A stretch of DNA of 64,000 bases from sequence record PV691511.1, one strand, 5' to 3'. Source of the DNA: Escherichia phage WPEC2. The position numbers and the translations under genes are program-made. Under the pieces are notes generated by a model. That model saw only the letters and a list, made by a program, of their open reading frames with translations, was not told the DNA's origin and made no database searches. Shown in pieces: positions 4,769-6,743 of the stretch (the stretch's first letter is position 1; every line of letters begins with the position of its first letter).

Positions 4769-5254
4769 TTAAAGTTTATAAATAGTCACATCGTGACCAG
4801 CTTTTACTAAAGTTTCTTTGATCATGACTTCAATGATAGCCCAATTACCTCCGGCACGCCCTGCACCTATCATAGGTAGACCAATCTTATGTGCTGGTTG
4901 ATCTCCTTTATCGTAATTGTGTAAGTCCATTGCCATAGCTGCAAGAGCATCATACAGCGCATCATAATCTAGTTGACGACCTTTACTATTATATCCATAA
5001 CGATACTGTCCATAAAGGTTGTATACCATAGGATTAGGATAATCTTCTGGTTCTCCTAAACTAAAAGAACCAAGCTTTTTCTGGTTTCCTGCTCCTGTAG
5101 CTAAATCTGCTTCGTATGCATATGGAAACGCATATTTTATTTGTGGGGCAATACCTGCCCCCATATTACACATACAATTACAACAATGAGCAATAACAGT
5201 TACTTCACCTGCTTTAGCGGCATCAATAAGATTACCTGTTTTCATTTTAAGCAT
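4769..5254 (-). CDS. macro-domain-like protein (possible ADP-ribose binding or processing)
   Basis: N-terminal VIAHCCNCMCNMGAGIA resembles the macro NAAN...GGGV motif; later IGLPMIGAGRAGGNW resembles the second glycine-rich macro motif; pattern judged by eye. Confidence 0.45.
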   Translation of the reverse strand: MLKMKTGNLIDAAKAGEVTVIAHCCNCMCNMGAGIAPQIKYAFPYAYEADLATGAGNQKKLGSFSLGEPEDYPNPMVYNLYGQYRYGYNSKGRQLDYDALYDALAAMAMDLHNYDKGDQPAHKIGLPMIGAGRAGGNWAIIEVMIKETLVKAGHDVTIYKL

Positions 5255-5266
5255 TTTAGATCCTTA

Positions 5267-6094
5267 TTACAGAATGTGTTGTTTTGTGTAACGATCCAAG
5301 AACTCAAAGTTTTCAGCATACTTTGCAATTCGGTTGTAACCTTCTCCCAAACATCCGAAGAAAAGCTGCTCTACATAGTAGTGTGGCAATTGGCTAAGAA
5401 TGATTTTGAAGTCTTCATGATTTTGGCCCATAAGATACTTAATAGGACGAACAAGACACTGTGCATCACGTTCTTCATTAATCATTTTAACAAATGCTTC
5501 TGGTGTATTAATATAGTTAAAATTCAGTTTAGCTTCGGTATCTGCTTGATTACCTTCGTATTTTGCAAAATACAAGAAGTAAACATCATTTTTAACTTGA
5601 TTCTCATCAAGAATCTCAATCAGTTTGTCTTCATGAGTTCCAGTAATATTTACATCATCAATGAACACAAGCTTCTTATCGCCCCAGAATTCTTTGTTGC
5701 AGTAGAATGTATCCCCATCAATAAGTTTCTTACGACTAGCTTTGTCCAAGAAACCATAATCGTTGATATAGCTAACTTTACGATGAATAATATCCAGTTC
5801 TGCTGAACGACCTTGATCATATTGTGATTGCAACATATTAAAGTAATTAATAAAATGATCTGTCATCATTGTTGCAGCATTATGCACATGGTTGTAAGGA
5901 GAAGGAATGATAACAAATTGTTCTCCAATATGTTTCATTGCCACTTGAGCAAAAAACTGAAGTGCCAATTCTTTACCCATACGACGCGCAGCCTGGTTAC
6001 TACCAAATTTCAATTTTGAATAGTCTTTGATATCAAAAGTAGCAGTTTCCAGGTCATCAAATTTATTTGCAAAAATTTGAGTTTGATTACGCAT
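5267..6094 (-). CDS. phosphoribosyltransferase-fold (type I PRTase-like) protein
   Basis: KLVFIDDVNITGT matches the PRPP-binding motif (hydrophobic run, DD, then TG[T/S]); substrate unknown. Confidence 0.5.
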   Translation of the reverse strand: MRNQTQIFANKFDDLETATFDIKDYSKLKFGSNQAARRMGKELALQFFAQVAMKHIGEQFVIIPSPYNHVHNAATMMTDHFINYFNMLQSQYDQGRSAELDIIHRKVSYINDYGFLDKASRKKLIDGDTFYCNKEFWGDKKLVFIDDVNITGTHEDKLIEILDENQVKNDVYFLYFAKYEGNQADTEAKLNFNYINTPEAFVKMINEERDAQCLVRPIKYLMGQNHEDFKIILSQLPHYYVEQLFFGCLGEGYNRIAKYAENFEFLDRYTKQHIL

Positions 6095-6743
6095 TTACAA
6101 TTTCTCCTCTTTTAAGTTTCTCTAGTAAGTCGTTAGGGTTCTTAATATGACAGAAGTTAAATCCTAAGTCAACACATTTTCCATCATATTCTTCACTATC
6201 GCCTACGTGCAATACTTCGTGCCCTAACAGAGGGATCGGAGAATACGTGAGCGTGCGAGCAAAGAATCGCGGATCTGGTTTACAAAGTAAAGCTTCATCC
6301 GAGAAATGGGTGAACTCAAAACAATTCCAACTATCAAACTTACAAGCACGACGCAGGATATCCCCTGATATGAAGTTGGTATTGCTCTTAATACTCAAAT
6401 CATAACGTCCCGAAAGATACAGCAAGTACATCGGCAGATCCACGGCTACGTGTGGTGGAAACTTAAGGAACCACTGTTCACACTCGAAACGAAGCTTTGC
6501 AGACTTCCAAGGCGTTATCCCAAGTTCAGAACCAAGTCTTTCCCAGGCGTATGCTGCACACTCGGCTTTGCCTTGAAGTGCTGCATTATCCAGTTCCTTT
6601 TTGATCTTCTTATAAGCTGCTCTTGCTTCCACTTCCGTAATATCTCCATATTTTGCGATAGTCCAGGCTCGCATGTCTGCGTAATTGGAGTTTGCTGTGA
6701 TCAGTGTGTTCCATACATCAAAAGAGATATGTTTAATAGTCAT
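6087..6743 (-). CDS. HAD-superfamily hydrolase (phosphatase or nucleotidase-like)
   Basis: Motif I FDVWNTL (dehalogenase-type DxYGT variant), motif III CKPDP, motif IV HVGDSEEYD. Confidence 0.55.
   Translation of the reverse strand: MTIKHISFDVWNTLITANSNYADMRAWTIAKYGDITEVEARAAYKKIKKELDNAALQGKAECAAYAWERLGSELGITPWKSAKLRFECEQWFLKFPPHVAVDLPMYLLYLSGRYDLSIKSNTNFISGDILRRACKFDSWNCFEFTHFSDEALLCKPDPRFFARTLTYSPIPLLGHEVLHVGDSEEYDGKCVDLGFNFCHIKNPNDLLEKLKRGEIVNA

Follow-up and report, generated by a model that had tools for sequence, protein, structure and literature searches.

The Ter (tellurite-resistance-type) system is widespread in pathogens and on plasmids, and it gives resistance to phages, colicins and tellurite. 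A biosynthetic module within this system, in which phosphoribosyltransferases (PRTases) and HAD phosphoesterases were predicted to make a 'nucleoside-like metabolite', was put forward by the Aravind group in 2012 (PMC7824862); the 2012 predictions are cited here through PMC7824862 and PMC8115787. Iyer et al. (2021) recorded the module in a jumbo phage and in 'certain other related smaller tailed phages', and proposed that it serves phages when they compete with superinfecting ones (PMC7824862). Other authors have likewise pointed out clusters of Ter genes in virulent phages (PMC8386662). The present analysis concerns a cluster of three genes, encoding a HAD-superfamily hydrolase, a PRTase and a macrodomain protein, in a 64,000-nucleotide stretch of DNA from Escherichia phage WPEC2 (sequence record PV691511.1), hereafter referred to as the window. 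The source phage is a Phapecoctavirus, a phAPEC8-like E. coli myovirus of the subfamily Stephanstirmvirinae.

Other described systems share single features with the cluster. The macrodomain protein Adpp was found by Osterman et al. (2026) to turn ADP-ribose-1''-phosphate (ADPR-1''P), which arises when the aRES defence cleaves NAD+ by RES-type phosphorolysis, into ADP-ribose (ADPR), and so to overcome this defence, which occurs in E. coli, Klebsiella and Enterobacter (bioRxiv 10.64898/2026.01.28.702374). In capsule and O-antigen synthesis, it has been established experimentally for CriT/CrpP that a ribofuranosyltransferase dependent on 5-phosphoribosyl-1-pyrophosphate (PRPP) acts first and that a HAD enzyme then removes the 5-phosphate (PMC10299916).

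Our analysis suggested that the three genes form two functional units and not one pathway. The HAD protein and the PRTase, a member of the PRTase_3 family, would constitute a two-enzyme cassette of Ter-type stress and conflict systems, and the Adpp-like macrodomain protein would act independently of them. We put the probability of this explanation at a little over one half (roughly 0.55).

The HAD and PRTase_3 genes and their Ter neighbours

The first-pass annotation of the window, which was made from the sequence alone, had recognised a 275-amino-acid (aa) protein with a PRPP-binding PRTase motif. This assignment was confirmed: the motif, KLVFIDDVNITGT, occupied residues 141-153 (nt 5636-5674), and the protein was a full-length member of the Pfam family PF15610 (PRTase_3, ComF-like), with a score of 142.4 bits against a gathering score of 28.7 and residues 11-266 aligned to profile positions 9-264 of 264. 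The PRPP-loop residues D146, D147, T151, G152 and T153 (DD-x-x-TGT) were intact, and the loop, together with about 55 other positions, was invariant among homologues down to 44% identity. No match to Pfam PF00156 (Pribosyltran) or to an NCBIfam PRTase equivalog was found at E<=0.1, a PDB sequence search returned no sequence relative, and a literature search for PF15610/PRTase_3 found no functional study. The AlphaFold model, which was built with 25 homologues, was confident (predicted local distance difference test score of 93) and showed a type I PRTase whose nearest structures were ComF and the nucleobase PRTases. A C-terminal helical region (approximately residues 186-275) was specific to the PRTase_3 family. 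As modelled, the protein belongs to a specialised family and is a catalytically plausible type I PRTase of the classical closed-site kind. ComF/ComFC (PDB 7p0h) shared 9% identity with PRTase_3; ComF belongs to a competence context and has no HAD partner, whereas PRTase_3 has its own C-terminal helical domain.

The HAD protein carried motif I as FDVWNTL at residues 8-14 (window 6702-6722), where Trp replaces the Asp+2 general acid, and motifs II (SNTN), III (KP) and IV (GD...D) were present. D9, S120/N121, K155 and D182/D187 were invariant in all 12 aligned members of the family. Trp11 was also invariant in this alignment, and it recurred in most of the other members examined from phages and bacteria; at locus L026 it is replaced by Tyr. 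The nearest PDB sequence was 2om6 (profile E of 2e-23), followed by HDHD3, both of which are functionally uncharacterised.

The HAD gene lay directly upstream of, or overlapped, the PRTase_3 gene in each of 22 phage loci, which represent approximately 15 lineages by PRTase identity, and it was directly upstream in 20 of 21 bacterial loci. Across these loci the paired HADs were homologous, with 30-50% identity. In the window the HAD stop and the PRTase start overlapped by 8 nt, and the two genes are probably translationally coupled. When 1.84 billion cluster representatives were searched with the profile, 824 PF15610 proteins were identified. At least 16 of the best 150 matches, each of approximately 490-545 aa, carried the PRTase as their C-terminal part. 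Of five such proteins that were tested, three had a Pfam HAD domain on the N-terminal side, so that the domains follow each other as the genes of the pair do, and one protein was arranged as PRT-HAD-PRT. Fusion of HAD to PRTase_3 was found in proteins P0173, P0197, P0272 and P0170, and the multidomain relatives (these four, P0189, P0217 and P0239) also included proteins with two or three PRTase_3 domains in tandem. The fusions gave strong support for consecutive action of the two enzymes. PRTase_3 was found in 156 phage records. An RNA ligase was considered as a recurrent partner and rejected; its gene was present near the pair at loci L004, L006, L010 and L026, but at a variable distance of 2.5-9 kb.

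Searches with TerC, TerD, TelA and vWA queries detected Ter genes within 10 kb of the pair in 7 of the approximately 15 phage lineages, in several gene orders. In large phage contigs with PRTase relatives the order was TelA - vWA(TerF-like) - ... - TerC - HAD - PRTase_3 - TerD, and in the canonical Phapecoctavirus/Justusliebigvirus genome it was nrdD-nrdG-...-HAD-PRTase-macro-small transmembrane protein-TerC-...-SprT-TelA-...-vWA-...-TerD. The bacterial pair adjoined TerD paralogues, TerC and vWA in Bacteroidales (Bacteroidota), Peribacteria and Pedococcus (Actinobacteria); the order in Pedococcus was TerD×n-TerC-vWA-TerD-TerD-HAD-PRTase_3-PRTase_3. In the window, a TerC/Alx gene approximately 310 nt downstream of the macrodomain gene was the sole component of the Ter system that was left. 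This gene, which the first-pass annotation did not mention, is the key to understanding the PRTase/HAD pair. No Ter genes were found near the pair on rhizobial chromosomes and plasmids, and these loci may represent a different use of the pair. In these loci, for example in Sinorhizobium terangae (L043:8834-11591), the order 151aa-HAD-PRTase_3-ClpP-like was found beside a HipA toxin and a large TPR protein.

As in the Ter biosynthetic module, the PRTase belongs to PF15610, a family defined from Ter systems, and has a dedicated adjacent HAD; the linkage of the pair is to TerC in the window, and the canonical genome of the lineage adds TelA, vWA and TerD. In contrast to that module, the window version is minimal, with one PRTase and one HAD; its TerC is of the Alx subtype, a macrodomain protein and a small transmembrane protein are intercalated, and the TelA/vWA/TerD part has been detached by rearrangement. 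The extended bacterial Ter set of Anantharaman, Iyer and Aravind (2012) reportedly includes ATP-grasp, C-C lyase and additional PRTases; no matches to these families were found among the neighbouring open reading frames (ORFs) scanned (1859-12098). Comparison of the gene neighbourhoods of the phage and bacterial loci showed that the recurrent partners of the pair were Ter genes and not the macrodomains with which it had originally been grouped. The pair is a representative, from a phage, of the Ter biosynthetic module that had been predicted before. To describe its function as unassigned and perhaps novel was an overstatement, since the prediction of a Ter module of PRTase and HAD dates from 2012 and its occurrence in phages was pointed out in 2021 (PMC7824862).

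A mechanism is proposed here from the observed family memberships, fold, gene linkage and fusions. The PRTase would transfer 5-phosphoribose from PRPP to an acceptor, most likely a base-like small molecule, and the HAD would then strip the 5'-phosphate from the PRTase product, with the net outcome that the acceptor would be ribosylated to a 'nucleoside-like metabolite'. A small base-like acceptor is favoured because the vicinal Asp-Asp is kept and because the architecture is compact and consists of a single domain. The cassette may serve a phage-run Ter system that remodels the envelope or ion state of the host, for example against superinfecting phages, as in the proposal of Iyer et al. (2021).

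The macrodomain protein

The macrodomain protein was matched by Pfam PF01661 at 21.6 bits, just below the gathering score of 22, and by the PDB macrodomain 5e3b at 2e-12. Sequence searching placed it in the TARG1-like (ALC1-like) class (SCO6735 at 2e-12, BT1257, DarG and TARG1). In a family-profile search SCO6735 and BT1257 were the nearest (1e-28), followed by TARG1 and DarG (3e-16 and 6e-15) and by Poa1p (4e-10). The G-x-G-I-A and I-G-x-G-x-A-G-G-x-W loops of SCO6735, BT1257, TARG1 and DarG were present. Over its full length the protein was 38% identical (E of 2e-31) to gp175 of the Vibrio phage Chester, which is itself 98.7% identical to Adpp of Vibrio phage Gary. On these similarities it is assigned to the phage Adpp/SCO6735/BT1257 branch of the TARG1-like macrodomains, as an apparent further member of the recently characterised Adpp family, and its activity is likely to be that of an ADPR-1''P phosphatase or another ADP-ribose hydrolase. 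Its most likely task would be to clear ADPR-1''P, or an ADP-ribose adduct related to it, without involvement of the HAD-PRTase_3 pair. The aRES defence is known from hosts of the source phage group.

Homologues of the macrodomain protein were detected by tblastn in 2,839 phage records, mostly without PRTase_3. The macrodomain gene adjoined the HAD-PRTase_3 pair in the Stephanstirmvirinae only; elsewhere, a homologue lay 7 kb away at locus L025. This arrangement is most readily explained by synteny peculiar to the lineage, in which a gene with a use of its own lies beside the pair, and it is because of this synteny that the macrodomain gene would be co-transcribed with the pair.

A different activity, which we consider rather unlikely, is that of an ADP-ribosyl glycohydrolase for macromolecules, by which DarT-type ADP-ribosylation of DNA or Glu-linked ADP-ribosylation of protein would be reversed. 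SCO6735, which is reported to remove Glu-linked mono-ADP-ribose, stands with BT1257 at the head of the nearest structures, and TARG1 and DarG come before Poa1p; the sole PADLOC/NCBIfam match was to DarG (1.5e-9 and 2.7e-8). The lineage's Sir2-like enzyme could also generate ADP-ribose adducts. Against this activity, the catalytic Lys of TARG1 and DarG is replaced by Gly-Gln and Asp125 of TARG1 by Ala, and by identity the nearest experimentally characterised relative is Adpp, which dephosphorylates free ADPR-1''P. DarG itself was rejected as an identification: the NCBIfam score of 33.5 bits was far under the cut-off of 250 and covered 147 of 338 profile positions, at the N-terminal end only, and the C-terminal DarT-binding domain was missing, as was the catalytic Lys.

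The Sir2-family NAD-dependent enzyme is encoded by Phapecoctavirus relatives (L012:22132-23263; gp64/gp65 of phage EF1-1), and through it the phage itself might supply the macrodomain protein with ADP-ribose derivatives.

NAD reconstitution and other explanations

Several observations weigh against a Ter-type cassette accompanied by an independent macrodomain protein. The pair was carried with no detectable Ter genes within 10 kb in 8 of the 15 phage lineages and in the rhizobial loci, and in the window the Ter set was split by rearrangement. To our knowledge, no product of any Ter-associated PRTase or HAD has ever been identified. The D-x-W-x-T-L motif is unusual for a presumed phosphatase and lacks the Asp+2 general acid, so that an ordinary 5'-nucleotidase role does not appear secure; because of this replacement, and because the nearest solved relatives are uncharacterised, a simple 5'-nucleotidase role is put forward here only provisionally. 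Three unrelated phage lineages had NAD-salvage genes next to the pair or in its vicinity. At locus L029 (10835-15217) an NMNAT-like gene came directly after PRTase_3 and was followed by YqeY and NAMPT, at L026 (17038-19651) NMNAT-Nudix and NAMPT lay 7-8 kb from the pair, and at L009 (6283-6855) a Nudix gene was near the pair. The macrodomain gene was syntenic with the pair in two genera, in addition to the copy 7 kb away in L025. Moreover, without Adps and Namat, what the phage would gain by turning ADPR-1''P into ADPR is not evident. Rhizobium phages had a Nudix gene one gene downstream of the pair. NAD genes may lie nearby because accessory nucleotide genes generally cluster, or because Ter chemistry and NAD metabolism are truly connected.

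These observations bear on a second explanation for the cluster as a whole, an integrated NAD/ADP-ribose module, which we regard as unlikely. Here the macrodomain protein would act on ADPR-1''P or another ADP-ribose derivative and the pair would handle the side of nicotinamide or ribose; from nicotinamide or nicotinate with PRPP, for instance, a mononucleotide and then a riboside would be formed, and the Ter metabolite would be an NAD-related nucleoside. Apart from the NAD-salvage genes and the L025 macrodomain gene, such a module is favoured by the tightness of the operon, with an overlapping HAD-PRTase junction and a PRTase-macrodomain gap of 12 nt, and by the HAD-PRTase-macrodomain synteny, which extends through Phapecoctavirus, Justusliebigvirus and Klebsiella relatives. 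In the Klebsiella-type Stephanstirmvirinae a 188-aa ORF, with an unknown N-domain and a MazG-like NTP-pyrophosphatase motif, lay between the PRTase and the macrodomain genes (L017:4024-4590 and L018:9505-10071), and the same N-domain was fused to the macrodomain in phage JohannJBalmer (Bas62; L008:7833-8567). In Thalassavirus phages of Vibrio, the macrodomain homologue lies between PRPS-like (PRPP-synthetase-like) and NAMPT-like genes, which make up the NARP1-AP operon (Adps-macro-Namat), and it therefore also adjoins a PRTase-fold enzyme.

This likeness to NARP1-AP did not extend to the enzymes. The PRTase-fold neighbour in the window was ComF-like and not PRPS-like, and comparison of its model led to the rejection of both Adps and a NAMPT-like enzyme as identifications. 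A tblastn search with Chester Namat gave no match at E<1 in the window or in the complete genome of the relative EF1-1, neither of which contained an Adps homologue. NARP1 or NARP2 elsewhere in the phage was also rejected, since the whole EF1-1 genome was negative for Chester Adps, Chester Namat and the Rhizobium-phage Nudix. Because no Adps or Namat was found, NAD+ could not be rebuilt by the NARP1-AP route. Furthermore, the macrodomain gene was not beside the pair in any of the 13 phage lineages outside the Stephanstirmvirinae, or in any bacterial locus that was not derived from a phage, and no PRTase_3-macrodomain fusion was found among the multidomain proteins tested. Dephosphorylation of nicotinamide mononucleotide would oppose NAD reconstitution, and accessory nucleotide genes of phages tend to cluster in any case. 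The proposal of the first-pass annotation, an ADP-ribose- and NAD-linked counter-defence or salvage module, was therefore sustained in one part only. The ADP-ribose link stood for the macrodomain protein, given its identity to the NARP1-AP macrodomain and through it to Adpp; NAD reconstitution or salvage by the PRTase and HAD was not supported, in view of their Ter partners, the lack of Adps and Namat, and the presence of the macrodomain gene beside the pair in one phage subfamily only.

A variant that we hold to be less probable again treats the Stephanstirmvirinae block, HAD-PRTase_3-(MazG-like)-macro, as one pathway that joins the Ter metabolite to NAD+/ADP-ribose conflict. For instance, PRTase_3 and HAD would make a pyridine riboside, or another riboside derived from NAD, out of the breakdown products of NADase defences, and the macrodomain protein would clear ADPR-1''P.

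It is slightly more doubtful still that the pair ribosylates a glycan, lipid, protein or nucleic acid, either by the logic of CriT/CrpP or, as the resemblance to ComF suggests, with DNA as the acceptor. In both CriT/CrpP and the window pair a PRTase-like transferase that uses PRPP is combined with a HAD, and the enzymes are neighbours or fused. However, the active site of CriT is opened, its D/E pair is split and it acts on polymers, whereas PRTase_3 keeps the classical DD loop, and no specific structural similarity between PRTase_3 and the CriT family was detectable.

Ordinary nucleotide salvage by an orotate, adenine or uracil PRTase and a (d)NMP phosphatase is very improbable: the cluster has nrdDG and further genes of nucleotide metabolism as neighbours, the PRTase shares its fold with nucleobase PRTases and some GenBank records read 'putative orotate phosphoribosyltransferase' and 'phosphatase', but the PRTase had no Pfam Pribosyltran, NCBIfam equivalog or PDB sequence match, making a nucleotide only to dephosphorylate it would be futile for salvage, and a specialised product is indicated by the pairing with a HAD of its own and by the linkage to Ter genes, in phages as in bacteria. 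Because none of the proteins belonged to a housekeeping family, the outcome that the first-pass annotation had named as contrary to its proposal did not arise.

Organisation of the locus and its significance

The region around the three-gene cluster (4 kb) was 100% identical in Escherichia phages WPEC1, WPEC4 and WPEC6, and 95-98% identical in many Phapecoctavirus genomes. Conservation of the macrodomain, PRTase and HAD ORFs at the DNA level extended to at least 78 phage records, which shows them to be genuine genes rather than ORFs that arose by chance. The three were adjacent on the minus strand exactly as first annotated (Table 1); the description of the cluster as next to nrdDG was approximately right, although the 201-aa ORF and a small ORF intervene before nrdG.

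Table 1. Positions of the cluster, its neighbours and the rearrangement junctions in the window
Feature	Position	Strand	Match or remark
Five tRNA genes	122-688	+	abut SprT-like ORF
SprT-like ORF	1109-1855		C-terminus foreign
Synteny breakpoint	1268-1270		reference Phapecoctavirus: SprT then TelA, vWA, TerD; window: tRNA cluster
Terminator-like GC-rich hairpin and T tail	3457-3474	-	directly after TerC stop codon
TerC/Alx-family integral membrane protein, 324 aa	3481-4455	-	Pfam TerC 4e-40; Alx subtype by NCBIfam TIGR03718, 318 bits (cut-off 246)
73-aa protein, two hydrophobic segments	4535-4756	-	phrog_16065
Macrodomain protein, 161 aa	4769-5254	-	phrog_335 9e-53
PRTase_3, 275 aa	5267-6094	-	PF15610 2.3e-41; phrog_13415 3e-161
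HAD-superfamily hydrolase, 218 aa	6087-6743	-	phrog_14393 3e-117; Pfam Hydrolase weak
201-aa protein, unknown fold	6745-7350	-	phrog_22504
Small ORF	7366-7590 (192 nt as annotated in relatives)	-	between 201-aa ORF and nrdG
nrdG	7571-8041	-	ORF list
nrdD	8038-9852	-	ORF list
Terminator-like hairpin, 9-bp stem	9927-9947	-	upstream of nrdD
Second junction of rearranged block	17937-17945		EF1-1 colinearity

The two terminator-like hairpins, both strong, bracket the region. The one after TerC is likely to be the 3' end of a transcription unit, and the one before nrdD its upstream boundary, which suggests that the anaerobic ribonucleotide reductase, the HAD/PRTase pair, the macrodomain protein and TerC are transcribed together, in the order nrdD-nrdG-x-201aa-HAD-PRTase-macro-73aa-TerC. 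A promoter scan was uninformative overall, with 35 sites against 33 expected; one promoter-like site preceded TerC. The 73-aa protein was always located between the macrodomain and TerC genes in the Stephanstirmvirinae (L008, L017, L018 and L019), and the 201-aa protein was no stable partner of the pair. Beyond the upstream hairpin, a 448-aa protein (9953-11299, minus strand) and a 184-aa protein (11296-11850, minus strand) matched PHROGs named 'ribonucleotide reductase' and 'histidyl tRNA synthetase', respectively; because neither matched Pfam, these names look unreliable. A 13-kb contig recorded as 'MAG: Proteobacteria bacterium' (JAEZZU010000022.1, L033) carried a 100% identical PRTase in the same nrdD-nrdG-201aa-HAD-PRTase-macro order, and is probably phage DNA that was mis-binned into a bacterial genome.

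In EF1-1 coordinates, the order of the window was 61919-63168 / 121184-137627 / 63169-112695. A 16.7-kb block with the cluster (window 1268-17945) was inserted between the tRNA cluster and the spanin/terminase genes, and it is either a true translocation or a misassembly. The 1268 breakpoint gives the SprT-like ORF an altered C-terminus and places TelA, vWA and TerD outside the window.

The cluster is instructive but largely anticipated, and it is not a new NAD salvage pathway. Records now annotated as 'orotate phosphoribosyltransferase' and 'phosphatase' would be better named 'Ter-associated PRTase_3' and 'Ter-associated HAD', and the third gene product 'Adpp-like macrodomain'. If the one-pathway explanation were true, the Ter metabolite would be identified and a further phage route of NAD handling, built on a type I PRTase, would be added. 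The analysis defined a minimal unit of one PF15610 PRTase and one D-x-W-x-T-L HAD, which is conserved and sometimes fused. This minimal pair is carried, next to an Adpp-type macrodomain, by cultivable and tractable phages of E. coli K-12 (the Phapecoctavirus and Justusliebigvirus members of the BASEL collection), and these phages therefore offer a practical system in which to find the Ter metabolite and to test for an overlap between Ter and NAD immunity.

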